The notes beneath the pieces were generated by a model. It saw only the letters and a program-made list of their open reading frames with translations. It did not search any database and was not told the origin of the DNA. A stretch of 46,218 nt of DNA from positions 1 through 46,218 of the forward strand of contig JASFEO010000009.1 in NCBI GenBank assembly GCA_050124795.1, read 5' to 3'. The position numbers were made by a program, and so were the translations under genes. Of the stretch, positions 10,477 through 44,899 are shown piece after piece. How positions within the stretch are numbered: the stretch's first letter is position 1; each line of letters starts with the position of its first letter. This DNA is from Candidatus Pacearchaeota archaeon. GTDB taxonomy: Archaea; Nanobdellota; Nanobdellia; Pacearchaeales; GW2011-AR1.

Positions 10477-10632
10477 GTGGAAACCATAACTGAACAGTTG
10501 CACAAGATTATAGACAAGCTGGAAGATGAAATAAACGAGCATAGGTTTTGTACCCTTATTTTCAAAATAAAAGAAGGGGAATTTGTGAGGTTTGAGAAGG
10601 AATTTTCGGTTAATAGGGATGAGATGAAATGA
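10477..10632 (+). CDS. Small protein (51 aa, weak YezD/DUF2292-like), probably leaderless; not in ORF track
   Basis: GTG 7 nt after the -10 box; stop overlaps the YopX ATG (ATGA). Confidence 0.45.
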   Translation: METITEQLHKIIDKLEDEINEHRFCTLIFKIKEGEFVRFEKEFSVNRDEMK

Positions 10633-11114
10633 GAGAAATTAAATTTAGAATGTTTAGTAAAAAATTATCCCATATGTTTTATGACCAAGACAATGAAAAT
10701 GAGTCCTATCTATGGGATATGAAAAATAATGTAACTGGCGGAAAAATAGAAAATGATATTGATAATATCTTCATGCAATATACGGGACTTAAAGATAAAA
10801 ATAATAAAGAGATTTATGAAGGGGATATAGTAAAAAGACAATGTGTTCAATGTTATTTTTTACATATTGTCAAATTTGGCGAGTACCAAAATAGTGCTGA
10901 CTTTGATTCTGTAGATTATCTTTTTGGTGTGGGGTGGTATGTAGAAGAATATGCAAGTTATTTTGATTTTAGGGGTGAATTAGTAATATCAAAACATAAA
11001 AAAATAGAACCCCTTAGCCATCATGGAAGCAATTATAAGTCCCCAAGTCCCACGGGAATAGAAGTCATCGGCAACATCTATGAAAATCCAGAATTATTAA
11101 AAAAAATGAAATAA
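10629..11114 (+). CDS. YopX family protein
   Basis: MREIKFR...MQYTGLKDKN.KEIYEGDIV...EVIGNIYENPELL. Confidence 0.92.
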   Translation: MREIKFRMFSKKLSHMFYDQDNENESYLWDMKNNVTGGKIENDIDNIFMQYTGLKDKNNKEIYEGDIVKRQCVQCYFLHIVKFGEYQNSADFDSVDYLFGVGWYVEEYASYFDFRGELVISKHKKIEPLSHHGSNYKSPSPTGIEVIGNIYENPELLKKMK

Positions 11115-19582: not shown

Positions 19583-19601
19583 GCCATGAAAGGATTGTAA
19601 T

Positions 19602-20762
19602 ATGAAAACACCTATAGATTTTACGCTATCAGGCATTACCTTGACATCGGCTAATTATACTTTGACGACTTATGAGGCAGAGACATATAGATATTTGGAA
19701 GTGACTTCCGGAAGTGGTACTTATGCGATTGTTGCACCGAATGTTAAAGATATGAATTTTGTGGTGATAAATAAAGACTGGATAAATAATGCAACTATAA
19801 AAGTATCTGGCATGAATGGGTACGCAGTCACTAAGGATACTTCTATGAGGGTAAGATGTAATGGTACTGATTATGAGGCTTACAATGTGATGATTCCCGT
19901 TATAGCTTCTTATAGTCCATCAGCAAGTCCGAGCTCATCACTTAGTCCTTCATCTTCGGTAAGTCCGAGTTCATCATTGTCACCATCAAGTTCGGAATCC
20001 GCTTCAGAAAGTGCATCACTCTCAGCCAGCTCGAGTGCATCGGCTTCGGCTTCACCATCGGCTTCGGCTTCACCATCAAGTAGTGTATCTTCAAGCTTAA
20101 GTCCGTCAGCATCACTCAGCCCGAGCGCATCACTCTCACCGAGCTCATCAGAAAGTCCGAGCTTAAGTCCGAGCGCATCACTGTCGCCAAGTGCTTCACT
20201 TTCACCGTCAAGCTCAGAGTCTCCATCACTTAGCCCTTCTGCATCACTCTCACCGAGTTCATCAGAAAGTCCGAGTGCATCAGCAAGTCTGAGTCCGAGT
20301 GCATCATTGTCGCCGTCAGCTTCGATTAGCCCGAGTGCATCTATATCGCCGAGTTCTTCAGAAAGTCCAAGCTTGAGCCCAAGTGCATCATTGTCGCCTT
20401 CCAGTTCAGAGAGTCCGTCGCTGTCACCGAGTTCATCAGAGAGTCCTTCACTTTCACCTTCAAGCTCTGAGAGCCCGTCGGGGAGCGCATCACTTTCACC
20501 GAGTGCTTCACTTTCACCTTCAAGTTCTGAGAGTGCAAGCTTGTCTCCATCCAGCAGTGAATCGGCTTCAGCTTCGCCTTCCAGTTCGGAATCTGCTTCA
20601 TTGTCACCCAGTGCAAGCTTAAGCCCGTCAGCGTCATACTCGCCTTCCAGTTCGGCATCTGCTTCACTTAGCCCGAGTGCGAGTCTGTCACCTTCGGCCA
20701 GCTTGAGCCCGTCTGCATCGCTTAGTCCAAGTTCAAGTGTAAGCCCAAGTCCAAGCGAGTGA
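19602..20762 (+). CDS. Head-region protein with about 283-aa C-terminal (Ser-X)n Ser/Pro tract
   Basis: About 100-aa beta-rich N domain, then [12 protein letters not shown] repeats to the stop; GAAAGGA RBS. Confidence 0.8.
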   Translation: MKTPIDFTLSGITLTSANYTLTTYEAETYRYLEVTSGSGTYAIVAPNVKDMNFVVINKDWINNATIKVSGMNGYAVTKDTSMRVRCNGTDYEAYNVMIPVIASYSPSASPSSSLSPSSSVSPSSSLSPSSSESASESASLSASSSASASASPSASASPSSSVSSSLSPSASLSPSASLSPSSSESPSLSPSASLSPSASLSPSSSESPSLSPSASLSPSSSESPSASASLSPSASLSPSASISPSASISPSSSESPSLSPSASLSPSSSESPSLSPSSSESPSLSPSSSESPSGSASLSPSASLSPSSSESASLSPSSSESASASPSSSESASLSPSASLSPSASYSPSSSASASLSPSASLSPSASLSPSASLSPSSSVSPSPSE

Positions 20763-27227: not shown

Positions 27228-28196
27228 ATGGTACAGATTATAGATAGTTATAGCGAAAGTAATATGGATTATGCAGGTTCTAAATTTGAACTTGAATCTG
27301 AAGCTTTGGGTCAATCTTTTACCGGTGATGGTAGCGTATTACATAGTACTGTTTTTTATTTAAAAAAGGTCGGTTCTCCTACTGGAAATATACACGCATA
27401 TATTTATGCACATTCAGGTACTTATGGTACATCATCTTTACCGATTGGTTCTGCTCTTGCAACTTCTGATGCTGTTGATGTAACGACAATAGATACAGAT
27501 TATGAACTTGTAGAATTTACATTTAGCGGTGCAGATAAAATCACTTTGGAAAATGAGACTTATTATGTTTTAGTCATTGAGGGAGTAGGGACAGATGTAG
27601 ATAATTGCATCTTTTATACAATGGATACTTCTTCACCGACCCATGATGGCAATTTTTGTTCCTATGTGGGTGGTTTAGAATGGACTGCATTTTCTGCTAA
27701 TGATTTAATATTTTATGTTTATGGAGATGAATCTTCACCCTCTCCATCCGAGAGTCCTTCTCTATCGCCTTCAGCATCATTGTCTCCTTCTGCTTCCGAA
27801 AGTGCGAGTGAGTCTCCAAGCTTATCACCTTCAGCCAGTTTATCGCCATCAGCATCACCTTCTTCTTCTGAGAGCCCTTCACTTTCTCCATCTGCAAGTT
27901 TGTCGCCGTCAAGTTCAGAATCACCAAGTCTTAGCCCTTCAGCATCTCTGTCACCCTCAAGCTCGGAATCACCATCTATAAGCCCTTCAGCATCAGAATC
28001 AGCATCTTTATCGCCATCAGCCAGTTTAAGTCCTTCTGCTTCCGAAAGTGCGAGTGAGTCTCCAAGCTTATCACCTTCAGCCAGTTTATCGCCATCTTCA
28101 TCAGAATCAGCTTCGGCAAGCCCTTCCCCATCTGCTTCACCTTCTCCAGCATGGCATCAAAGACCGCCAATAGTAATCATAAGGGGAAAGGCATGA
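27228..28196 (+). CDS. Tail-region protein: beta-sandwich N domain plus about 139-aa Ser/Pro tract
   Basis: GQSFTG...FYLKKVGSPTG...F.FS....L....YYVLV, then SX repeats 27732-28148. Confidence 0.75.
   Translation: MVQIIDSYSESNMDYAGSKFELESEALGQSFTGDGSVLHSTVFYLKKVGSPTGNIHAYIYAHSGTYGTSSLPIGSALATSDAVDVTTIDTDYELVEFTFSGADKITLENETYYVLVIEGVGTDVDNCIFYTMDTSSPTHDGNFCSYVGGLEWTAFSANDLIFYVYGDESSPSPSESPSLSPSASLSPSASESASESPSLSPSASLSPSASPSSSESPSLSPSASLSPSSSESPSLSPSASLSPSSSESPSISPSASESASLSPSASLSPSASESASESPSLSPSASLSPSSSESASASPSPSASPSPAWHQRPPIVIIRGKA
27785..28096 (+). repeat. Exact 66-bp direct repeat (27785-27850 and 28031-28096) within a Ser/Pro tract
   Basis: TCCTTCTGCTTCCGAAAGTGCGAGTGAGTCTCC...TATCGCCATC present twice. 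Confidence 0.9.
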
Positions 28197-29110
28197 TAAG
28201 TATAGCAATACCAAGCCGAAATGAGATATTTCTAAAAAAGACTGTCGAAGATATACTTGAAAAATCAATCGGGGATATTGAAGTATATCCTATTTTGGAC
28301 GGATACGATATTCCAAAAGATGAAGTAGTGGAAGATGATAGAGTCAAATATATAAGATTACCTAAAAACTACCATACGCAGAAAAGACAGGCAATAAACC
28401 TTGTAGCGTCAGTATGTAATGGTGATTATATAATGAGCTTGGATGCACACTGTATGCTTGACTATGGATGGGACGAGATAATTGTAAAGGATTTAGAAGA
28501 AGACTGGATTGCAATACCCAGACGCAATAGGCTTGACGCGGAGAATTGGTGCATACAAAAACAATGCGATGACCGACCGCCGATTGATTATGAATATCTT
28601 ATGTGGCCTGTAAAGTTTAAGCCAATGGGATTTCATGGTTTTAAGTGGGATGATAGGACACTTGAAAGAGAGGATATAAAAATAGATGACACGATAACCT
28701 GTCAGGCTTCAATGTGGGTAATGCATAAAAGCTGGTATAAAAAGAATGAATTTATGCAGATAAAAGGATTTACTGGATGGGGTATGGAAGCTGAAGAACT
28801 TTGTTTTAAAACATGGATGCGCGGTGGCAGGGTGATAACGAATAAGAATACCCGGTATGCACATCTGCACAAAGGCAGAGAATACGGCAGGATGTATTTT
28901 CTCCCCAAAAAGGATACAAGGAAGTGTAATGCCTATGCTTTTGATTATTTTGTAAATAACAGGGATAAAAAAAGGATACATGATTTTAGCTGGCTCATTG
29001 AAAAGTTTATGCCAATGCCTAACTGGCCTGAAGATTGGGAAAATCAGTTATACAGCAAAAAAGTACAGGATATAATAAAACAACAGCTTATAGATTATCC
29101 AATTGAATAA
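28193..29110 (+). CDS. GT-A glycosyltransferase with polypeptide-GalNAc-transferase-like motifs
   Basis: SIAIPSRNE, LDG, LDAHC...GW, WGMEAEELCFKTWMRGG, YAHLHK; ATG 28193 overlaps the upstream stop (ATGA). Confidence 0.88.
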   Translation: MISIAIPSRNEIFLKKTVEDILEKSIGDIEVYPILDGYDIPKDEVVEDDRVKYIRLPKNYHTQKRQAINLVASVCNGDYIMSLDAHCMLDYGWDEIIVKDLEEDWIAIPRRNRLDAENWCIQKQCDDRPPIDYEYLMWPVKFKPMGFHGFKWDDRTLEREDIKIDDTITCQASMWVMHKSWYKKNEFMQIKGFTGWGMEAEELCFKTWMRGGRVITNKNTRYAHLHKGREYGRMYFLPKKDTRKCNAYAFDYFVNNRDKKRIHDFSWLIEKFMPMPNWPEDWENQLYSKKVQDIIKQQLIDYPIE

Positions 29111-29726
29111 GACTTTAGAATATATAATAAAAAAATATAAGATAGATTTAAATAAGAGGTCTCCGTTTAATATAGACTGCGGCAGATGGGAAAAGCTCCC
29201 TAAACTTTTTAAGGAACTTAAATTTAAGGTCGGTGCAGAAATAGGAGTCCTTAAGGGTCAGTATTCGGAATTACTATGCAAGACTATACCGGGACTTAAG
29301 ATGTACTGCATAGACAAATGGAAGAAATACCCTACTTATAGGGATTTCAGAAGCCAGGATACACTTGACGAATACGAGCGGGTAGCAAGAAAAGTACTGG
29401 CAAGATATGACTGTATAATAATGAAAGCATGGAGCATGGATGCGGTCAAGGTCATTGATGACAGCAGTCTTGATTTTGTCTGGATTGATGCAAACCATGA
29501 ATTTCAGCAGGTTACAAACGATATAGCGGAATGGTCAAAAAAAGTAAGACCTGGCGGTATAGTTGCAGGACATGATTTTTTTAGGAGTGCTAATAGTAAG
29601 CTATATGTTCAGGTAAAAGACGTTGTGCAGGGCTGGACATACGCTTATGGTATTCATCCCTGGTTTGTATTAAAGGATGAACGTACAGTGTCAAGGGGAA
29701 TAAGCTGGATGTGGGTAAAAGAATGA
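29103..29726 (+). CDS. Class I SAM-dependent methyltransferase (Methyltransf_24-like)
   Basis: GAEIGV..G, LDFVWIDANH, PGGIVAGHDF. Confidence 0.88.
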   Translation: MNKTLEYIIKKYKIDLNKRSPFNIDCGRWEKLPKLFKELKFKVGAEIGVLKGQYSELLCKTIPGLKMYCIDKWKKYPTYRDFRSQDTLDEYERVARKVLARYDCIIMKAWSMDAVKVIDDSSLDFVWIDANHEFQQVTNDIAEWSKKVRPGGIVAGHDFFRSANSKLYVQVKDVVQGWTYAYGIHPWFVLKDERTVSRGISWMWVKE

Positions 29727-30685
29727 AAGTACACCAGAACATTGAAATAGATGGTATGGATATAGGGGATAGGAAAGACCGCAGGTATTCAAAGTTCTGC
29801 AATGAGGGTAAGTGGGACAATTTCATAAAACCACTTATACCTAAATGTGTATCTGAACAGATATTTATTGAGTTTGGCTGTAATGCAGGACTGTATTTAA
29901 GACTTGCAAAAGAAAAAGGATACAAGCGTGTCATAGGAATTGATAAAAGCAGGAACGCGGCAAGCATAGCGGAAATTTACAGGGATGAAAACGAGCAGGA
30001 TTATGAAGTAATAAACGAGCAATTAGGCGAGCATTTTGATTTTGATAAGCTTCCAGTAGCTGACTTGATTTTGATGGCAAACTTTCATTATCACCTGACC
30101 GCACAGGATTTTATTTCAATAATGGACGCCATACAATATAAGACTTGCTACTGTCTTGTAGTCTCAGCAAAGGTAAGAAAACAGATTCACTGGAAAGCAA
30201 AGACAAGTTTAAATGACTTAAAATATTATTTTAGGAACTGGCAGCCGGTAAATGAAGTTTACTATGTATCACCGGAGAAAGACCCGCACCCCAGGGAAAT
30301 GTGGAGCATACTGTTTAAATCCGGTCTGGAAAGAAAGCCCATTAAAGATTTATGGAATCCTAAAAATAAGGACAAGTACAATAGAATACCTCAATCATCA
30401 ACTGCTGAACTTTTCAGGAAAGTACTGGAATCAGACAATGTAGATACAAGGGATAATACTTATTATAAAAAAGTCCTAAGGGCAAGAGCAGAGGACGGCT
30501 GGTCAAGAGGCAGGATTGACAGGTTCGTAAGGGATAAGATTGAACTTATGTATGATGTCAAAAAGAACGGGTTTAAAAAGCCAGTGCTGATAAGACTTGA
30601 TAATAGAATTATAGAAGGCAATCATAGATTAGTTATGGCCAGGGAATTAGGATATAAAAGCATAATAACAAGGACGGTCTATTGA
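29723..30685 (+). CDS. SAM methyltransferase fused to a C-terminal ParB/Srx-like domain
   Basis: IEFGCNAG...VIGID; C-terminal KKNGFKKPVLI....IIEGNHRL..ARELG. Confidence 0.75.
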   Translation: MKVHQNIEIDGMDIGDRKDRRYSKFCNEGKWDNFIKPLIPKCVSEQIFIEFGCNAGLYLRLAKEKGYKRVIGIDKSRNAASIAEIYRDENEQDYEVINEQLGEHFDFDKLPVADLILMANFHYHLTAQDFISIMDAIQYKTCYCLVVSAKVRKQIHWKAKTSLNDLKYYFRNWQPVNEVYYVSPEKDPHPREMWSILFKSGLERKPIKDLWNPKNKDKYNRIPQSSTAELFRKVLESDNVDTRDNTYYKKVLRARAEDGWSRGRIDRFVRDKIELMYDVKKNGFKKPVLIRLDNRIIEGNHRLVMARELGYKSIITRTVY

Positions 30686-31329
30686 TAACGATACTATATT
30701 TTACTGGCAATTATGAAGACGAGTATTTCGCCAGGATAATAAGGCAGAACATACTCAGGTTAAAAAGGGATTTGCCGATAGTATCAGTATCACAGAAACC
30801 GCTTGACTTTGGAAAAAATATTTGTGTCGGTGTCCATGACCCATGTTATTTGAATGTAGACAGGCAAGTACAGATAGGGCTTGAAGCTATTAAAACAGAA
30901 TATATTCTTACCGCAAATGATGACTTTTTGTATCCGCCCGAGTATTTCTCATTTAAACCCAGGAAATCGGGGAAGTGTTATAGATACGATAATGTATGGG
31001 TACATTATAGAGGAAAGCCATTTTACTTTAAGGGTTATTCCGATGGCGCACAGCTTATTGACAGAGAATTGTGGCTTGACAATAAAAACAAAATACTTAG
31101 GGGTCGCAAGGTGTGGTCTGAAATAGATGAGGTTCTGCCTAAAGATTTACATATTAGATACCATATAAAAACCGATAAGAAATATACCTGGCATGGCAGG
31201 CCAGCAATAGATTTTAAGACTGGACACAGTATAAATCCTATGACAGAAATAATAAAGGATGTTAAATCTAATTACCTGCCTTACTGGGGAAGTACGGAGG
31301 ATCTAGAAAAAGAGATGTTTAGATGTTGA
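30682..31329 (+). CDS. Putative GT-A-fold glycosyltransferase (paralog group B)
   Basis: TILYFT...VSVSQKP.DFG.NICVG...QIGL....YILTANDDFLYPPEYF (DxD-like position). Confidence 0.6.
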   Translation: MITILYFTGNYEDEYFARIIRQNILRLKRDLPIVSVSQKPLDFGKNICVGVHDPCYLNVDRQVQIGLEAIKTEYILTANDDFLYPPEYFSFKPRKSGKCYRYDNVWVHYRGKPFYFKGYSDGAQLIDRELWLDNKNKILRGRKVWSEIDEVLPKDLHIRYHIKTDKKYTWHGRPAIDFKTGHSINPMTEIIKDVKSNYLPYWGSTEDLEKEMFRC

Positions 31330-31994
31330 GCGTAGCCGTTCTTTACTATACTGCAAACAGGGAAGATGAATACTTTGAAAATAAGGTAAAACAGAATATA
31401 TTAAAAAATAAGGGAAGCCTGCCGCTGGTATCAGTATCGCAAAAGCCCATAGACTTCGGTAGGAATATATGTGTAGGTATGCATGATAACTGCTATCTTA
31501 ATGAATTTCGGCAAATACAGATAGGCCTTCGTGAAATAGATACAGATTATATATTGACTGCTGAATCTGATTTTCTATATCCACCGGATTATTTTAGTTT
31601 TAGGCCAACCACTTCTGGTAAATGTTATAGGTACTGGCCAGTGTGGATTTGCTACTATAAAAATAAAAAAGACAAGACACCCAAATATCATTTTAAGGGT
31701 TATTCCAACGGTGCTCAGATGATAGACAGAAAACTATGGTTAAGAGAATTAGATAGATTTTTTAAGGACCATAAGATTTGGGCAAGCAGTGATGATGAAC
31801 TTGAAATACCTGCAAGTTTAACGATAAAGACTGACCCTGATTTTGTATGGAGTTCAGATATTCCAGCAGTAAGTTTTAAAACGGGATATGGAGTAAATCC
31901 TGCAACCGAGGTAAGTAAAAAATTAATTCCAAGATGGAGACTGCAACACTGGGGACTGGCAAAAGATTTAAGAAAGGAAATGTTTGGTGGCTAA
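31323..31994 (+). CDS. Putative GT-A-fold glycosyltransferase (paralog group B)
   Basis: Collinear paralog of 30682-31329; YILTAESDFLYPPDYF. Confidence 0.6.
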   Translation: MLSVAVLYYTANREDEYFENKVKQNILKNKGSLPLVSVSQKPIDFGRNICVGMHDNCYLNEFRQIQIGLREIDTDYILTAESDFLYPPDYFSFRPTTSGKCYRYWPVWICYYKNKKDKTPKYHFKGYSNGAQMIDRKLWLRELDRFFKDHKIWASSDDELEIPASLTIKTDPDFVWSSDIPAVSFKTGYGVNPATEVSKKLIPRWRLQHWGLAKDLRKEMFGG

Positions 31995-32493
31995 AAAGAA
32001 TAAAAAACCGATGCATGTGATGATGACCCACCTGCTTTTGATTGCAAGGATATTTGATAAAAGCAGCGGGCCGATACTTGAAATGGGAACAGGTTATTTT
32101 TCTACATTATTTTTTGATTGGCTGTGCTGTACGTTCGACAGGAAGGTAATCTCTTATGATAACAATAAAAGATGGGGACAAAGAGCGTTAAGGTACAAAT
32201 CAGATTATCACGAAGTCCATATTGTAAATGACTGGGATAAGGCCGACATTGATAATACACACTGGGGTCTTGTCTTTATAGACCATGCGCCGCAAAGAAG
32301 AAGACATATAGATGTAATAAGATTAAAGGATAAAGCAGATTATATTATAATGCATGACACCGAGCCAGAAGCAGATAAATGGTACAGATACAGCAGGGTA
32401 TGGAAATACTTCAAGTATAGGTATGACTACGATAAGACTAAACCCTGGACAAGCGTAGTAAGTAATTTTAAAGATTTAAAAGATATTAGATAA
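31984..32493 (+). CDS. Class I SAM methyltransferase-like protein
   Basis: ILEMGTGYFST, ISYD, LVFIDH, IIMHDTE. Confidence 0.7.
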   Translation: MVAKKNKKPMHVMMTHLLLIARIFDKSSGPILEMGTGYFSTLFFDWLCCTFDRKVISYDNNKRWGQRALRYKSDYHEVHIVNDWDKADIDNTHWGLVFIDHAPQRRRHIDVIRLKDKADYIIMHDTEPEADKWYRYSRVWKYFKYRYDYDKTKPWTSVVSNFKDLKDIR

Positions 32494-32710
32494 CGACCCA
32501 GTCAGTACCGAGCATGTCGCCATCATTGACTTTCCAGACATACAGTTTTCCATCTGGTTTATGAATCATGAGCCATTGACCATTTAGAAAACCATAATAA
32601 TTATTATTTTTCCATTCAAGTTTTGTGACTTTTTTACCGTTTATTACCTGTCGCATAGCTTCTGGAAAGTCCATTTTCTTTGTAGATAATATATCCGTTA
32701 TATTGTTCAT
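32486..32710 (-). CDS. DUF2829 / Tad2-like protein (start 32710 or 32674)
   Basis: MDFPEAM..VINGKKVTK.EW...W.....DMLGTDW matches the family pattern; fills an otherwise empty gap. Confidence 0.7.
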   Translation of the reverse strand: MNNITDILSTKKMDFPEAMRQVINGKKVTKLEWKNNNYYGFLNGQWLMIHKPDGKLYVWKVNDGDMLGTDWVVI

Positions 32711-32739
32711 ATTAATAATATTATATTTTTTCAAATTTT

Positions 32740-34344
32740 ATGTCAACTTATGATTTAAGTATAATAATTCCAGCCCGCAATGAGATGTTCTTAGGGCTCA
32801 CGGTTGAAAACCTGCTCAAAAACATTAGAGGGAATACTGAGATAATAGTGATACTGGATGGATACGATACTAAAATCCCTGAAATCCCCAAAGCTCCTAA
32901 TATTACTTTAATTGGACATACGACGTCGGTTGGCCAGAGAGCTACCTGTAATGAAGCAGCGAGATTATCACAGGCAAAATATCTTATGAAAGTAGATGCT
33001 CATTGCAGTTTTGATGAGGGTATAGATGTAAAGATGATAAAGGAAATGCACGATGACTGGACCATGATACCCATAATGTATAATCTGCATGCTTTTGACT
33101 GGGTATGTCAAAAATGTGGACACCGTCTATATCAGGGCCCCACTCCCCCCAAGTGTGAAAAATGTGGCGGTGAAATGAAACGTGAAATATTGTGGAAGGA
33201 AAAAAGGAATCCTGAATCTACTGCATACAGATTTGACAATACCCTGCATTTCCAATACTGGGGGGCTTATAAAAAGAGAGCCGAATATAAAAAACAGCTA
33301 AAAGAGACAGGCGTAACTGAGACTATGTCCATACAGGGCAGTTGTTTTATGTGTACCCGAGACAAATGGTTTGAGCTTGATATATGTGATGAAAAGCATG
33401 GAAGCTGGGGACAGCAAGGGACGGAAGTATCGTGTAAAACATGGCTGTCGGGCGGCAAAGTAAAAGTAAATCATAAGACCTGGTATGCTCACATGTTCAG
33501 GACTCAGGGTGGGGATTTTGGTTTTCCCTATCCTAATCCTGGGATAATGAGCGCACGCAGATATTCAAGAGACCTATTTATAAACGGTAAATGGGATAAG
33601 GCTAAATATCCCCTGTCATGGCTTATTGACAGATTCAAGCCAGTTCCTGATTGGGATGTGACAAAAGGAATAGTCTATTACACAGACAATGAGCTTGACG
33701 AAGGCATAATGAAGATGTGCCAGAAACAGTTAAAGGAAAGTGTAAACGGTTCAAAAATAATATGTGTTTCATTAAAAAAGACACCGTTTGGAGACCATAT
33801 AATAATGAATCTTGAGCGTGGATATTTGACTATGTTTAAGCAGATACTAAAAGGTTTAAAGACACTTGATACGGATATAGTTTTTTTATGTGAGCATGAT
33901 GTACTGTACCATAAGAGCCATTTTGATTTTGTACCGCCTAAAAAAGATACATTCTATTATAACGAAAATGTATGGTTTCTCAGGTGGAGTGACGGTCATG
34001 CTCTGCATTATGACGCAAAACAATTATCTGGTTTATGTGCTTACAGGGATATTTTAATAAAACACTTTGAGGAAAGAGTGGCACTTGTAGAAAAAGAGGG
34101 ATTTTCAAGAAGGATGGGATTTGAACCTATGACGCATGGAAGAATCAAATGGCAAAATATGTATAAGTGCGAAGGCTTTAAATCTGAATTTCCAAATATT
34201 GATATAAAGCATGGTGGTAATTTGATAAGGGCAAGATGGAAAAAAAAAGAATTTAGAAATCAGAAATTTACTAAAGGTTGGACGGAATCTGATGTCATAC
34301 CCGGCTGGGGAAAAGCAAAGGAATTAATAAGAGGTAATATATAA
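32740..34344 (+). CDS. Two-domain glycosyltransferase: ppGalNAc-T-like GT-A with Zn-ribbon insert, plus group B GT domain
   Basis: [22 protein letters not shown] insert, [23 protein letters not shown]; C half GIVYYT...FKQILKGL...FLCEHDVLY. Confidence 0.88.
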
Positions 34345-34345
34345 T

Positions 34346-37300
34346 ATGGCTGGAACTATAGGATATGGCGATATAGACCAAGCTTCATCTGGAACTGGTT
34401 ATACCCGTCTGGAAATATATACAGGTACGGGAGCGACCGTTGCTGGATTATTCCATAATGCAAATATCAGGACAGTCACTGACGGTACAGTAAAAATAAA
34501 AGTTTTCCGCGATGATGGTACTAATTATAATTTTATAGGTGAAGCAGAGGTTGAGGTTTCTGCTGGTCTTAATAGTAATATTGATATTTCTGGAGATAAT
34601 ATACAGGTACAGTCGGGTGATTATGTTGCTTATTACAGTGCTGATACAGGAATAAGGGCAGGCAGTAGTTCTGTTGGTGGTTCTTCAGTGATGAAGAGCG
34701 GTGATATAACTTCTAATAGCCTTAAATCTTCCTGGTCTACTTATGACCGCCATATAGCAGTATGGGGAGATATAGAAGAATCAAGTGAAAGTGCTTCGGA
34801 ATCTCCATCACTCAGCCCTTCCTCATCCGAAAGTGCCAGTCTATCACCATCCAGCTCAGAATCAGCATCATTATCACCCTCAGCCAGTGTTAGTCCATCA
34901 GCATCACCTTCTTCATCCGAGAGCCCTTCATTGTCGCCATCAGCAAGTCTGTCACCGAGTGCCAGTGAGTCAGCATCCATATCTCCTTCTTCATCAGAAA
35001 GCGCCAGCCTGTCACCCAGCTCATCAGAAAGTGCATCTATATCTCCATCCTCTTCGGAGTCAGCTTCACTTTCGCCATCAAGTTCAGAAAGTCCGTCTCT
35101 ATCTCCATCAAGTTCAGAGAGTCCATCTCTATCTCCGTCAAGTTCGGAGAGCGCAAGTATTAGTCCTTCTTCATCAGAAAGCGCCAGTGCATCACCTTCC
35201 GCATCACTTTCACCTTCGGCTTCAATCTCGCCATCTGCCAGTCTGTCTCCAAGTGCAAGTAAATCTCCATCAATAAGTGCGTCACCTTCTGCATCTTTGT
35301 CACCATCGGCATCCGAGAGTGCAAGTCTGTCGCCATCAGCCAGTTTAAGTCCGTCATCTTCTGCGAGCGCCAGCTTATCACCTTCAGTAAGTTTGTCACC
35401 AAGTGCTTCCGAAAGTGCAAGTCTGTCACCTTCATCTTCAATATCGCCGTCGTCATCCGAGAGCGCAAGTGCATCGCCATCATCTTCAGTTAGTGCATCA
35501 TTAAGCCCTTCGGCATCTTTAAGCCCATCAGCATCTTTGAGTCCCTCTGCATCTCTGTCGCCTTCAAGCTCGGAATCACCATCTGAGACTCCCTCGGCTT
35601 CACTTAGCCCATCAGCATCGCTTTCACCAAGCTCATCTGAAAGTCCGAGTTATTCGCCCTCAGCCTCACTTTCACCTTCAGCATCAATTAGCCCCTCGGC
35701 ATCTCTTTCTCCCTCAGCATCTGAGAGTGCAAGCGAATCTCCAAGTTTGAGTCCTTCTGCAAGTGCGAGCCCTTCCTCTTCGGAATCAGCTTCAATTTCG
35801 CCTTCAGCCTCACTCAGTCCATCGGCCAGTACATCACCATCGGCATTTCCAGAAATAATAGATATAACAAAAGCAATAAAATTAACAACTACAAAAGAAG
35901 TCAATGGACCGTGGACTGCAAAATTGCAAATACCCTCAAATGATTATATCGAACCTGAAGGCTATGTTGAATTAGAAGGTGAAAATTATCTTGTAAAAAG
36001 GCTTAAAAAAATAAAGCTCAAAGGTAGGACTTATTTTGATATAGAATTAGACCATCTGATGACTGAGCTAAATGACTACACGGTAGAAGCATTTGAATAT
36101 AATAGTGTATCGGCTGAGACTGCCCTTACAAACTTACTTGCAGATACTACCTGGAGCGTGGGAGATGTTGATAATCTTGGAACCGAGAATATGGACAGTG
36201 ATAGAAGAATAACGGTACTGCGTGGTATAACTCTACTACTTGAGACATTCGGCGGGGAAGTATATTTCAATCAGGACAGGACAGTAGATATTAAATCTAC
36301 TATTGGAGATGATACTAAGAAAGTACAAATAAGATATGATAAGAATAGTGATTATATTGAAAAAGAAGAAGACCAATCAAAAATTGTTACCCGTCTTTAT
36401 CCCTATGGCAATGACAACATAACTATAAATACTCAAATAATGGAAGAGTGTGATGTGCTTGCAGATTGGACTACATCAGATGAGACCAATCTTGTAAAGA
36501 GTGCTGACACGGTTGATAGAAAGCATGGCCAGGCTTCACTTAAACTGATCGCTGCTGCCACCGATAGTCTAAATGATACCCTCACAAGGGATTTAGGGGC
36601 TGGCAGCGAGCTTGATTTGACTGACCATACAAAATTAAAATATTGGATAAAATCATCCCGTACTGGTACAAACCTAAAGTTTGGAATGGGCGAGAGTGCC
36701 TGGGATGATAATACTTATAATGTGACGATTGATACTGCTAACGAATGGCAGGAGGAAGAATGGGATATATCGGGAATTGCAAATGCAAATAAAAACGCAA
36801 TACGTTATATCGGTCTAAAGATAGCAAATGCAGATGCTTTAAATACAATAAGGTTTGATTATATTAGGGCATTTGACGGTGAAATATATTTAGAGAGTGC
36901 CAATATTGATGATTATAAAAATCCAAAAGAAGTGGCACTCTTTACTACTTTTGATGATGTCGATGAGCTTAAAGCATACGCACAGGAATACCTTGACCAG
37001 TACGACAGTCCGATAGAGCGTTATTTAGTAAATATGGCAGACCTATCGAAAGCGATGAAAGATACATGGTCAGATGATTCAATTGCTTTAGGTGATACTG
37101 TGAGAGTCTATGATTCCGATTTAGGACTTAATGTAGATTGCAGGGTAAAAAAGATAACCAAAGACTTACTGAACCATACATTGATGAGTATTGAACTTAC
37201 GAATAGCCTGGAAAATATATCAAAGAAATTAGTAGATGATTATAGAAGACTGTCAAGTGCGATGCCTTATGATAATGATAAGACTGCTATAAATGCAGGG

Positions 37301-38110
37301 GCAGTAAAGTTCGGATACTTACAGGCGTCGGTTATTCGTGCTAATTCTATTTATGCAGAACATTATGCACAGCTAAGAAATGTACTTCCCTATAACTTTG
37401 ATGATAGTTTAGACAGTTCTTATCCTTTAGAGTGTGAGTTTTATATGCCTCCCAATGTAGATGAGATTAAAAGTGCCTGGGTTCATATAGTTGGCAGGAA
37501 TTTTAGGGCTTATTCTAAAGGTGCGGCAAGTGGAGGAGGACAGACTTCAAGTAGTGGTGGAGGCCAGACTACAAGCTCGGGTTCTTCTCATAGTCATACT
37601 GTTACTGGACAAACAGCAAGTTCTGGAGGAAATCATAGACATTATGTGGGTACATTTTCTACAGGAGTCGGCACGAATAGTCATTATCATTCAATATTAA
37701 ATGGTGTAACCGATGTTCAGGCTTACAGTGATCATACTCATAGTGTTGGAGAACATTATACAGGATATTCAGATAATCATATACATTCAGTAACGGGTAC
37801 AACATCAAGTTCGGAAAGTTCACATACACATACTGTCAGCAATCATACCCATACTGTATCAAATCACACACATTCATTGACCTTCGGTATTTATGAAAGT
37901 ACAGACCCTACTGGAGTAAATATTTATGTAGACAATGGTTCAGGATATGGAAGTTCTCTTATAAGCGATGATACACCTGTTTCAATAGATTATAATATAG
38001 TGGGTGAACTTTCAACTACTGCTGGTTGGAAAAAATTAAAGATAACTTCGAGTAGATTGGGTAGAGTAGTTGTGGCGATAATTCTTGATTTAACAATTTC
38101 AAGTATTTAA
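34346..38110 (+). CDS. Tail tip/Tal-like protein with N domain, about 355-aa Ser/Pro tract, CBM-like insertion and HxH-rich C-terminus
   Basis: E.FGGE..F...IRY.KN...IVTRLYPYG...LGDTVRV.D..LG Tal-like motifs; SX tract 34781-35845; HSH/HTH repeats near the C-terminus. Confidence 0.85.
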
Positions 38111-40644: not shown

Positions 40645-40874
40645 ATGCTAATAGAACTGACCCAAACTGAAATAGCAAAAATACTTGAATATCTGTTAAA
40701 TCCAGAAGGTCTAAGTAATGGTAAGGTACTTGATTTAATAGAAAAACTGGAGAGAGAACTTGAAAAAGATAATAAAGATAATAATAAATAAGATATTTAA
40801 AAAGCATACTAAAATTTATATAGAGCATATAAGAGATAAGATTATGTCAGAGTTTTATTTTTAACTTGCCCCAT

Positions 40875-41170
40875 ATGGTGGGTAAAGTATAAAGACTTCG
40901 GTCTGAAGACTGGATTAGCTATCCTACGCCCACCGTAGCAGTTTAGGTCGTTCTGCTATAACAAAAACTTCCGGAATAATAGGTTGGCGGTGGGGTAGCT
41001 CCTCTTAAATATCCTGTTGGTAATCGTAAGTACCGCAAAAACCGCCAGTAGACTATGAACGGGTTGGCTGGTAATTCGGAGTAACAGCGAATAACGTAAA
41101 AACGGATAGGCGGAATAATCCGATATATTCCCGGTGGGGTTTCTATCCGAACCTAACACAAAACCAGCCA
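40875..41170 (+). ncRNA. Candidate multi-domain structured RNA or leader
   Basis: GC-rich intergenic stretch with at least eight helices, including a C-UUCG-G hairpin. Confidence 0.6.
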
Positions 41171-41195
41171 TTTATAATTCAACAGGGAGGTTCTC

Positions 41196-41951
41196 ATTTT
41201 AGACAAAAATTCTATTGAAACGCACCTTGTAATAAATGATTTACATGCACCTTATTATCATAAAGAAATACTTGATTTAGTATTAAAGTTTGCTAAGGAT
41301 TTAAAACCGGATAAATTAATCAATCTCGGTGACCAAGTAGATTGCCCGTCACTCTCTCAATTTGATACAAGGAAAGATAGGATAACTACCATAGCACAGG
41401 ATTTTAAAGCTGGTTATATAGCAAATGCAAAAGTAGCAGAGGCAGTTAAAAAATCGGACAAGATTTTCCTGTATGGCAATCACGAAGATAGGTTTAACTC
41501 ATACTTGTCGAGACACCATGCGTCAGAAGGTCTTATAGATATGAACGAAAAGATAGGGCTTAAAGACTTTGGATATAAGTCTATCCCTTACGGAAGTGAA
41601 TATGTTTATAATGACTTTCACTATCAGCACGGTACAAAGGTAAGAAAGTTTGCTGGATATACTGCTAAGAATGAATTGTATGAACAATGGGTAAGTGGAA
41701 TAATGGGGCATACCCATAGGGCAGGTTTTTGCTGTGCTTCAAATAAATCAGGCGGGGATTTTGGCTTCTGGGAAAATGGCTGTATGTGTGATTTCCAGTT
41801 AGCTTGGGAGTGGTTTAAGAAACCTTTTCCCAACTGGCAGTATTGTATATCGGTAGTCAAGTTTGTTAAAGATAAATTTAATGTACATCAGATTATAATT
41901 CCACGCAAGCACCCGTTTATTCTTTACGGTAAGCATTATTACACATTGTAA
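41196..41951 (+). CDS. Calcineurin-like metallophosphoesterase (non-canonical ATT start)
   Basis: DLH, GDQVD, GNHE, HG and GHTH motifs in one frame; AGGGAGG precedes ATT 41196. Confidence 0.85.
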   Translation: MLDKNSIETHLVINDLHAPYYHKEILDLVLKFAKDLKPDKLINLGDQVDCPSLSQFDTRKDRITTIAQDFKAGYIANAKVAEAVKKSDKIFLYGNHEDRFNSYLSRHHASEGLIDMNEKIGLKDFGYKSIPYGSEYVYNDFHYQHGTKVRKFAGYTAKNELYEQWVSGIMGHTHRAGFCCASNKSGGDFGFWENGCMCDFQLAWEWFKKPFPNWQYCISVVKFVKDKFNVHQIIIPRKHPFILYGKHYYTL

Positions 41952-42308: not shown

Positions 42309-42539
42309 ATGGATAATATAGTATTAGACTTTGCAACAATAGCAATAATTACAATAGCCATAATAAATAGAATAAAGTCAGAGTTACCTGAAATCAAACC
42401 TATATTTTATACCCTTATGTCGGTAGTGGTAGGTGCTGGATTGTATGCAGTCAGTATCTATGCGAGCGATACAGTTATGGGATTTATATTTGCGGGCTTG
42501 ATTGCAAGCGGTATCTATGATGTCTACAAAAAACAATAG
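42309..42539 (+). CDS. Putative holin
   Basis: 76 aa with 2-3 TM segments, ending GLIASGIYDVYKKQ; AAGGAGGTG RBS. Confidence 0.7.
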   Translation: MDNIVLDFATIAIITIAIINRIKSELPEIKPIFYTLMSVVVGAGLYAVSIYASDTVMGFIFAGLIASGIYDVYKKQ

Positions 42540-42555
42540 TAATTTTTATTTGATT

Positions 42556-42564
42556 TGATATAAT
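42556..42564 (+). promoter_or_regulatory. Extended -10 promoter upstream of the tRNA-like RNA
   Basis: TGATATAAT, followed by a near-perfect inverted repeat at 42566-42587. Confidence 0.5.
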
Positions 42565-42603
42565 TAAGATGTTACTAGTAATATCTTCATGGGTATTACC
42601 TCT

Positions 42604-42697
42604 GGGCGTGTCCAAGTTCGGGTAGATATATTGGTGTCAGGTTACCTGATAGCCATTATATTTATCAACAGGAGTGTAATTCTCCTCACGTCCACCA
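42604..42697 (+). ncRNA. tRNA-like / tmRNA-TLD-like RNA with Ala identity elements
   Basis: 7-bp acceptor stem with G3.U70, ACCA end, 5-bp T stem with 7-nt loop, no D stem, one long helix in place of the anticodon arm. Confidence 0.75.
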
Positions 42698-42699
42698 CT

Positions 42700-42740
42700 T
42701 AGGGATAGTATATTAATTTATGCTATCCCTATTTTTTTTT
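42700..42740 (+). terminator. Intrinsic terminator ending the late region
   Basis: TAGGGATAGTA...TGCTATCCCTA followed by T9. Confidence 0.85.
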
Positions 42741-42761
42741 GACTTATGGGTAAAATAACAC

Positions 42762-42789
42762 TTGACAAGTTAAAAATAATCTTTATAAT
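42762..42789 (+). promoter_or_regulatory. Consensus sigma70 early promoter
   Basis: TTGACA-N16-TATAAT. Confidence 0.75.
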
Positions 42790-42796
42790 AAAAACT

Positions 42797-43009
42797 ATGA
42801 ATAATTTAAATGAAATTTTATATCAGAAGCGTATTACTAAATCAGACCTCGCAAGAGCCTTAAACGTAAGTAGACAACGTGTTAATAATTGGACACAAAA
42901 TAAAAACTATCCCCAAAAAAAATATATTAAATTAATATCAAATTTTTTGGGAGTATCAATAGAAAGGCTGTTTTATAATGAAGATAATATTGGTGAAGAA
43001 AGGAGATAA
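42797..43009 (+). CDS. Cro/XRE-family HTH regulator, probably leaderless
   Basis: ITKSDLARALNVSRQRVNNW..NK.YP......IS.FLGVSIERLF; ATG 7 nt after TATAAT. Confidence 0.88.
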   Translation: MNNLNEILYQKRITKSDLARALNVSRQRVNNWTQNKNYPQKKYIKLISNFLGVSIERLFYNEDNIGEERR

Positions 43010-44431: not shown

Positions 44432-44899
44432 ATGAGAGAGATTAAATTTAGAGCTTGGTATAAAAAAGAAAAGAAGATGTTTAAATTGCATTTTCCCTAT
44501 GGAACAGATGTTACATATGAACAAACATCAAAGAATACAATACTAATGGAATTAAGAAGTAGGGATTTTTTTAAAGATTGTGAAATAATGCAATATACAG
44601 GACTTAAAGACAAAAATGGTAAAGAGATTTATGAGGGAGATATTGTTAAATGTTTAATTATAGCTCATCATATGGGTTGGTATGAAAATTATCCGCGACC
44701 TTATGATTGTTTAGAAATTAAATTAAAAGTTTATGAAGATGGAGAACAATATAATACCAAAAATCACTTTGGTTGGATAGGCGAGGGTTGGGATTATGTT
44801 AATAAAGATTATTGGGATTTTACTCTTATAGATTTAATTAATGAATATAATTGTGAAATCATTGGCAACATCTATGAAAACCCAGATTTACTAAAATGA
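44432..44899 (+). CDS. YopX family protein (second copy)
   Basis: MREIKFRAW...MQYTGLKDKNGKEIYEGDIV...EIIGNIYENPDLL. Confidence 0.92.
   Translation: MREIKFRAWYKKEKKMFKLHFPYGTDVTYEQTSKNTILMELRSRDFFKDCEIMQYTGLKDKNGKEIYEGDIVKCLIIAHHMGWYENYPRPYDCLEIKLKVYEDGEQYNTKNHFGWIGEGWDYVNKDYWDFTLIDLINEYNCEIIGNIYENPDLLK

Follow-up and report, generated by a model that had tools for sequence, protein, structure and literature searches.

The stretch of DNA considered here, hereafter the window, is the whole of contig JASFEO010000009.1 (46,218 nucleotides), deposited as part of a Candidatus Pacearchaeota archaeon assembly (GCA_050124795.1). Its first 137 bases recur at its end with 99% identity, and the window is a complete circular or terminally redundant phage genome of about 46.1 kb. 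At 42604-42697 it carries a real, conserved RNA gene of 94 nt whose architecture is that of transfer-messenger RNA's (tmRNA's) tRNA-like domain (TLD), with no message domain. The parts of the gene are as follows, where MFE stands for the minimum free energy fold, and L108 and L457 are two contigs with homologous copies.

42604-42697, + strand: tmRNA-TLD-type tRNA-like RNA gene, 94 nt, with encoded CCA (MFE fold; L108 homolog)
42604-42610, + strand: 5' strand of the acceptor stem, GGGCGUG (G1-G7, including the G3 of G3:U70); 7 of 7 pairs the same in L108
42611-42620, + strand: stemless D-loop-like linker UCCAAGUUCG, 10 nt, unpaired in the MFE fold
42621-42666, + strand: P2-like interrupted helix of 20 bp (42621-42641 with 42645-42666) with a UUA cap (MFE fold)
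42667-42669, + strand: AAC linker 5' of the T stem (sequence and MFE fold)
42670-42686, + strand: T arm AGGAG-UGUAAUU-CUCCU, with a 5-bp stem and the 7-nt loop UGUAAUU (MFE fold)
42687-42693, + strand: 3' strand of the acceptor stem, CACGUCC (with U70), followed by the discriminator A at 42694 and CCA at 42695-42697; the same in L108 and L457

The unconstrained MFE fold of the 94 nt is exactly this structure, at -35.7 kcal/mol (z = -5.03), and none of 200 dinucleotide shuffles folds as well. The original prediction, which was made from the bases alone, had described each of these elements, and all of them are present in the sequence and in the fold. As a chance control, a descriptor made up of a 7-bp acceptor stem with G3:U70, a T stem of 5-6 bp with a 7-nt loop, and ACCA was run on both strands of 3.66 Mb of collected unrelated loci. 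It returned six distinct matches: the window RNA, its L108 homolog, an RNA in a further metagenome phage contig (L107), and three others without a T-loop-like loop. The window RNA contains no mRNA-like domain with a tag reading frame, being 94 nt in total with its helix closed by a 3-nt loop, and it offers no sequence room for the pseudoknots PK1-PK4. In the predicted fold, it is the long, triloop-closed P2-like helix that occupies the place of the tmRNA pseudoknots and tag reading frame. A two-piece or permuted tmRNA was considered and is ruled out by the standard gene order and the closed helix.

Evidence for conservation comes from a covariance model built from the window RNA alone and run on 69 metagenome loci encoding relatives of the window endolysin. 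The model gave one match, a 95-nt sequence at L108:14425-14519 (46 bits, E 1.2e-9), on a contig that is also present in IMG/VR (L170/L458). The L108 RNA folds into the architecture of the window RNA, with a helix segment of 45 nt that differs in sequence and is capped by UUU. In a model-guided alignment of the two, all seven acceptor-stem pairs are identical, whereas the long helix has 7 of its 20 pairs altered on both sides and 3 on one side, and the T stem has 3 of its 5 pairs altered on both sides. Compensatory pairs amount to 10 of 32 in total, with paired cells at 95%, and sliding the 3' partners by 1-3 columns brings the count down to 0-1; this is a count over two sequences in an alignment fitted to the structure, and the contrast with the slid controls is clear all the same. 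The collection of homologs and the covariation analysis, both proposed at the outset, speak for the RNA. The surroundings are conserved as well. Both phages have the order zinc-ribbon gene, holin gene, RNA, terminator, TTGACA-16-TATAAT promoter and XRE gene, with the L108 terminator starting 4 nt past the CCA, while their endolysins share only 42-43% identity.

The 17-nt 5' segments of the two RNAs differ at a single site, linker position 12, which is A in the window and G in L108 (where it forms part of AGG), and nine of the ten positions of the linker UCCAAGUUCG are identical. The window has the T loop UGUAAUU where L108 has the canonical UUCGAUU, giving GU versus UC at positions 55/56. Linker position 12 and T-loop positions 55/56 change together in either purine register, and in one register this amounts to the exchange of a G-C for an A-U pair. 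Such a paired change fits the prediction of a tRNA elbow contact between G18/G19 and positions 55/56, and a compensation between D loop and T loop appears supported, in one sequence pair only. The compensation had been proposed for both A residues of the D loop against the GU of the T loop; linker position 12 does covary with the T loop, but only the second A differs. The linker 5' of the T stem is AAC in L108 too, and GAC in L107 and in the tmRNA consensus; G3:U70 and ACCA are found in all copies.

A third copy of the RNA, at L457:5757-5850 in an IMG/VR contig of 38,141 bp, is the same as that of L108 from GGUUCG onward. Its 5' end deviates (GGGGCUG, UAAUGG) and is tmRNA-like, leaving five of seven acceptor pairs formed and two mismatches, and it lies directly behind the terminator of another upstream module. 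Judged by its sequence, this copy appears to have arisen by recombination within the gene itself, which would imply an unseen donor lineage; an IMG/VR motif scan did not find the donor of the 5' part.

Wider searches added little to the family. BLAST of the RNA locus and of the surrounding 16 kb against 50,697 phage records gave no match, and when the L108 RNA was compared with phages by BLAST, the sole matches were two insignificant ones to an RNA phage. Beyond the window's own record, the matches listed in six motif scans of IMG/VR include only the L108/L170 and L457/L190 contigs; the other stretches listed failed the acceptor/T-arm test or sit in high-GC coding DNA. A scan for the 5'-end pattern in one genome each of 185,579 species returned 58 stretches, which were only partial, weak matches to the model, and no tmRNA with the 5' end of the window RNA. 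The single-sequence model had no match in 150 other genomes of the family to which the archaeal bin belongs. A second model, built from the window and L108 RNAs, was run over eight related contigs and found the L457 copy and, weakly, L107, with L095, L100, L101, L109, L110 and L149 lacking the element. Across the related contigs compared, the RNA has no specific companion gene.

The neighbourhood of the gene contains the following features.

42309-42539, + strand: holin-like gene, with which the protein genes of the late/lysis operon end (PHROG 1299 holin, E 7e-5)
42556-42564, + strand: extended -10-like TGATATAAT (TGnTATAAT), 39 nt 5' of the RNA start (read from the sequence)
42700-42740, + strand: intrinsic terminator, a 13-bp hairpin (42700-42731) with T9, 2 nt past the CCA; end of the late transcript
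42762-42789, + strand: perfect TTGACA-16-TATAAT promoter of the next (early) unit, 12/12 matches; also perfect in L108
42797-43009, + strand: XRE/Cro-like helix-turn-helix gene (Pfam HTH_3, E 1e-9); identity 67% to L108 and 67-71% over L108/L457

A holin homolog stands directly 5' of the RNA in L108 too. Since the RNA lies between the holin gene and the terminator, it is the last element of the late unit. The terminator had been expected 2 nt downstream of the RNA and is found there, as a hairpin at 42700-42731 with its T run. The extended -10 that was thought to give the RNA a promoter of its own fared less well: the motif exists at 42556-42564, and a promoter scan reports an overlapping TTGATA-18-TAATAT at 42555-42584 with 9/12 matches, but L108 has no promoter-like site at the corresponding place. 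The fold, the conservation with compensatory changes in a second phage, and the fixed place at the end of the late unit are the established part of what we report. On the downstream side, the ATG of the XRE gene lies 7 nt past the perfect -10, so that its mRNA should be leaderless, an arrangement that is kept in L108 (14635-14675).

Sequencing runs offer a hint of transcription. One RNA-library run yielded three low-depth contigs on the window; these are assembled contigs with possible DNA carry-over and are uninformative on a small RNA. One of them, 42438-42606, begins within the holin gene, spans the leader and reaches three bases into the RNA gene; none of the RNA contigs extends over the gene past 42606. 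That end would fit co-transcription followed by a cut near G42604, a hint from a single low-depth contig of one study. In a marsh DNA run, contigs of at least 90% identity span 42668-42739, which takes in the T arm, the 3' acceptor strand and the terminator, and the DNA runs X3 and X8 have no cover over 42572-42638, which proves nothing.

The closest link to recognized tmRNAs is provided by L107. The RNA at L107:7833-7914 is 82 nt long, was found by the descriptor, and has the architecture of the window RNA: its acceptor shows G3:U70 and ACCA, its linker has no stem and leads to a single closed helix, and GAC precedes a T arm with the loop UUCGAUU. On the Rfam tmRNA model (RF00023), for which the gathering score is 47, it reaches 50.2 bits (E 9.5e-19) in an alignment that spans the tRNA-like domain and skips 310 model positions. 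Because it passes the gathering score, it is a bona fide tmRNA without a message, and the phage that carries it has the endolysin (51% identity), and nothing else, in common with the window. The architecture of an alanine-type acceptor RNA of the tmRNA-TLD kind, as first proposed for the window, is found in the fold and, in the L107 RNA, is accepted by RF00023. Both RNAs are placed downstream of an endolysin homolog in a phage. They are unlike in that the L107 RNA has CGAC...GGAC, a 12-bp helix with a pentaloop, and a place in a tRNA cluster, with a metallophosphoesterase-type gene directly 5' and genes for tRNA-Met and tRNA-His directly 3'; on models built from window-type RNA, it reaches only 18-20 bits. 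The adjacent tRNA-Met (L107:7919-7990) is itself unusual, with a reduced D arm, a T loop UGCAAUU (G55, as in the window RNA) and 26.6 bits on the Rfam tRNA model, under the gathering score of 29.

A published counterpart exists in Mycobacterium phage DS6A, which is listed as "Mycobacterium phage DS6A (TLD only)", with a sequence comprising little beyond the TLD, in PMC4131195. We located the DS6A RNA at 28478-28560 (83 nt; 43.2 bits on RF00023), behind two lysin genes and two small genes, which is the end of the late block. That source, with reference to Mao et al. 2009, also reports strong inhibition of tmRNA by a similar molecule, whether chargeable or not, perhaps via SmpB titration, and the statement on DS6A and tmRNA inhibition recurs in PMC11915505. 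The DS6A RNA resembles that of the window in being phage-encoded just downstream of lysis genes, in its size of about 83 nt, and in its make-up, with G3:U70 in the acceptor stem, a D-loop that has no stem, a P2 that is short and closed, and a T arm, but neither pseudoknots nor a tag reading frame. In contrast to the window RNA, it scores on RF00023 and keeps most of the CGAC motif; its P2 has about 10 bp against 20 bp, its genomic 3' end is ACUA against the encoded ACCA, and DS6A is an actinophage with an integrase, whereas the window is a low-GC phage without one.

Other known RNAs are instructive in different ways. PMC11915505 counts 9 "Standard, no CDS" (coding sequence) forms among 97,179 sequences and reports CDS-less forms in mitochondria and two plastids. 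The CDS-less tmRNAs of jakobid mitochondria and some plastids are likewise reduced to the tRNA-like domain, and they are kept together with SmpB and presumed to have a tag-less function (PMC11915505; PMC3590771); they are organellar and mostly of permuted form, and are likened to the window RNA by description only. Laboratory TLD fragments from SmpB/ribosome structures also have the acceptor, D-loop, T arm, start of P2 and a small closing loop, and differ in being artificial and taken from genuine tmRNA with the conserved motifs; SmpB binds such fragments, and in vitro a TLD fragment together with SmpB sustains the synthesis of polyalanine without a template (PMC3929946). Full-length tmRNA (RF00023), phage copies included, shares the alanine identity set, a stemless D-loop with GG...UUCG, a P2 beside the T arm and the nAC linker, and is unlike the window RNA in having pseudoknots, a tag reading frame with resume codon and stop, and a length of about 350 nt. 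The linker and helix start of the window RNA (UCCAGGUUCG-GG) resemble both the Rfam tmRNA consensus and a real Clostridia tmRNA 5' end; a linker of pyrimidines, purines, GG and UUCG, followed by a helix that opens with GG, is common to the window RNA, the L107 and DS6A RNAs and the two real tmRNAs compared. Compared with TLD-only RNAs and tmRNAs, the window RNA has a helix about twice as long and a non-canonical T loop. Finally, tRNA-Ala and class II tRNAs share G3:U70, A73, CCA and a T arm with it, whereas canonical tRNAs differ in having the D stem and 7-nt anticodon loop that it lacks, and tRNA detectors reject the window RNA.

Any functional reading depends on the host, and here the assignment of the contig matters. 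The bin is archaeal, measures 1.06 Mb (genomes of its family range over 0.4-1.3 Mb), encodes two TATA-binding protein (TBP) repeats, has tRNA genes with inserts and, in bin-wide searches, no sigma-70 region 2, no SmpB and no tmRNA. The phage is marked as bacterial by YopX, a replisome-organiser N domain, a 3D domain and a peptidoglycan-binding endolysin. It also carries promoters with the sigma-70 consensus, along with intrinsic terminators. Phages of Clostridia, Streptococcus and Erysipelothrix have large terminases that match its own at up to 55% identity, and its G+C content of 35.5% compares with about 32% in most of the bin. The relatives of its endolysin are named after metagenome-assembled genomes as unlike as Atribacterota and Methanofastidiosum. 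Because the phage has bacterial marks, the bin is archaeal and the RNA is found in none of the 150 other family genomes, the window is probably a bacteriophage mis-binned into an archaeal genome, a problem that is also reported for tmRNA genes in archaeal metagenome-assembled genomes in PMC11915505.

Our preferred interpretation, which we put forward tentatively, is that the window encodes a message-less TLD RNA of the tmRNA type that competes with the tmRNA of its host. The RNA would be transcribed with the late operon, and in the window phage perhaps also from its own extended -10. By analogy with the established processing of tRNA and tmRNA, RNase P may release the 5' end at G42604, with 3' trimming back to the encoded CCA after termination, and the alanyl-tRNA synthetase (AlaRS) of the host would charge the RNA with alanine through G3:U70. 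As suggested by DS6A and the TLD fragments, the charged RNA could then, late in infection, rival the tmRNA of the host in binding SmpB, EF-Tu and stalled ribosomes. With no resume codon, tagging would be blocked, or replaced by a tag-less addition of alanine, and we speculate that truncated late proteins and non-stop late mRNAs may in this way be spared tmRNA-linked decay. The idea of a decoy for SmpB was already part of the original prediction, which named a decoy for AlaRS, a decoy for tRNA-targeting defence and an alanine donor beside it, and the titration proposed for a phage TLD-only tmRNA in PMC4131195 and PMC11915505 is a published parallel. The features on which the interpretation draws are the G3:U70 acceptor stem, discriminator A and CCA, which are also present in L108, L107 and DS6A (the last with its ACUA end); a stemless D-loop with a T arm, for which the loop-loop contact is suggestive with two sequences; and the combination of a TLD with a closed P2 stub and no CDS in a phage-encoded RNA. 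We consider it reasonably probable that the window RNA works like a TLD-only tmRNA and is probably derived from one, as distinct from being a tested member of RF00023.

Several observations weigh against this interpretation. The detectors do not recognise the RNA: ARAGORN calls no tRNA or tmRNA gene in the whole window, 42604-42697 included, and relaxed settings on the RNA region give nothing beyond two spurious intron calls; no Rfam match in the window reaches its gathering score, and the tRNA (RF00005) and tmRNA (RF00023) models have no match within 42450-42850 even at E <= 10. Both of these checks, which the original prediction had proposed, therefore came back negative, and RF00023 reports the L108 copy no more than the window RNA at that threshold. 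A genome-wide search of the bin with the tmRNA model likewise returns tRNA places only. The region at the base of P2, CGAC...GGAC, is important for SmpB binding. This motif is present in the tmRNA consensus and L107 and partly in DS6A, and it is absent from the window RNA and the L108 copy: in the window RNA, UUCG runs straight into the helix without the AC of CGAC, and AAC precedes the T stem without the G of GGAC. The two-sequence model scores the L107 RNA at 19.9 bits and the DS6A RNA at 20.3, full tmRNA at 12.8 and class II tRNAs at 17-30, so rating the last at least as high as TLD-only RNAs, and descent from tmRNA rather than from tRNA is not proven by such model scores. The family is very small, with two intact members and the hybrid copy of L457. 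Lastly, the bin has neither SmpB nor tmRNA, and with this archaeon as the true host, a mechanism through SmpB would be impossible.

The same features can be read in other ways. An RNA that is processed and charged, yet acts independently of SmpB, either as a decoy for acceptor-end, tmRNA or RNase R enzymes or toxins or as an alanine donor, would account for an acceptor stem that is invariant (7/7 pairs) and a 5' linker that is nearly so while the rest drifts, as fits recognition of the acceptor end, and for the loss of the CGAC/GGAC motif and apical loops unable to decode (UUA in the window, UUU in L108). There is some precedent: PMC11662646 describes phage-borne t(m)RNA fragments that act in an anti-CRISPR complex and bind RNase R, and PMC10542128 describes SmpB-like domains in defence systems. 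A partner is nonetheless missing, with no SmpB, RNA ligase or aminoacyl-tRNA-using transferase among the window proteins scanned (40 open reading frames against Pfam, of which the 10 near the RNA also against PHROGs), no specifically co-occurring gene in the related contigs and no identified defence target, and we regard this reading as rather unlikely. Its boldest form, in which the window RNA and its homolog have left the tmRNA-SmpB system and, with the P2-base motif lost but the invariant alanine acceptor end and a tRNA elbow retained, make up a new class of phage acceptor-only RNA at the end of lysis operons, serving as a sponge for host factors or defence toxins directed at tRNA or tmRNA acceptor ends or as a donor of alanine outside normal decoding, seems to us doubtful to a slightly greater degree. 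It might also be asked whether the element acts only in cis, as an RNase P site which, jointly with the terminator, defines and protects the 3' end of the late mRNA, leaving the small RNA without function. The invariable position of the element between the last late gene and the terminator, the lack of conservation of its own promoter and the RNA-library contig ending at 42606 (single, of low depth and a hint only) would fit; an RNase P site, however, needs no G3:U70, encoded CCA, D-like linker with elbow covariation or conserved 20-bp helix, and 6 of the 8 related contigs searched do without the element, so that we hold a purely cis-acting role to be improbable.

Improbable to a still greater degree is that the gene is a decaying relic, a fragment of a degraded tmRNA, tRNA or attachment site picked up from a host. 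The tiny size of the family, the L457 hybrid with its two acceptor mismatches and the ssrA fragments known from prophages (PMC9004378) would be expected of a relic. Decay is hard to reconcile with ten double changes that keep pairs intact between phages whose endolysins are 42-43% identical, with both acceptor strands being present, or with the conserved terminator and position; the contig also has no integrase, and the 58 partial, weak matches in one genome each of 185,579 species include no tmRNA with the 5' end of the window RNA. The decayed attP fragment that the original prediction had allowed for is not what lies here, the gene being complete, and an attP formed by the 3' part of an ssrA or tRNA gene beside an integrase is ruled out on the same two grounds of acceptor strands and missing integrase. 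That the RNA is an unusual decoding tRNA, for instance an ochre suppressor, we find scarcely credible: the apical UUA is complementary to UAA, but it is a 3-nt loop without anticodon-loop geometry, as had been recognised from the start, it is replaced by UUU in L108, and ARAGORN and the Rfam tRNA model both reject the RNA, which has no cloverleaf with a D stem and 7-nt anticodon loop.

The phage-encoded message-less tmRNA is thus already published as a concept, and the window adds a divergent variant in another phage lineage. Message-less tmRNAs are very rare; DS6A is the only phage example named in PMC4131195 and PMC11915505, and the list of nine in the latter may bear on novelty. To DS6A the window adds a second lineage, of uncultivated low-GC phages from wetland and marsh metagenomes, and the compensatory changes and fixed synteny are evidence of selection on such RNAs. 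Since tmRNA and tRNA detectors miss diverged forms, the class is probably under-counted. If rescue is indeed blocked or rewired late in infection, these RNAs would represent a compact, RNA-only means of phage control over a quality-control pathway of the host. The contig also illustrates cleanly how phage DNA can end up in the bin of an archaeal genome.

The remainder of the genome is that of a tailed phage. All assigned genes lie on the forward strand and include the small and large terminase, portal, prohead protease, HK97-type capsid, tail tube and Dit, together with a lysis block of an endolysin with a PG_binding_1 domain, a second endolysin-like protein and the holin; the contig has no match to a tyrosine or serine recombinase. 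Three structural proteins (19602-20762, 27228-28196 and 34346-38110) have long Ser/Pro/Ala-rich repeats (SPSASxSPS...), and within the tail module, at 28151-34344, lie two glycosyltransferases of family 2 as well as two to three methyltransferases, which suggests that virion proteins may be glycosylated. At 40645-41951, about 860 nt without an open reading frame above 74 aa or a protein-family match are followed by a 148-aa open reading frame that matches only the last third of a metallophosphoesterase PHROG and may be a broken gene. Two YopX-family genes, one at each end of the early region (10629-11114 and 44432-44899), are 72-87% identical in parts of their DNA.

Two further observations concern other genomes. 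In the bin, ARAGORN reports a 94-nt "tRNA-Stop(tta)" at C26:7562-7655, which looks like an intron-containing archaeal tRNA with an insert of about 20 nt beside the anticodon loop and is unrelated to the window RNA despite its equal length. In Achromobacter phage JWDelta (L459, ~19,600-19,800) and Tunturiibacter phage Tunturi_5 (L460, ~158,100-158,400), unannotated stretches on which ARAGORN is silent have a tmRNA-like 3' end, made up of a T arm and an acceptor strand with U70 and ACCA, and may be unannotated phage tmRNAs.

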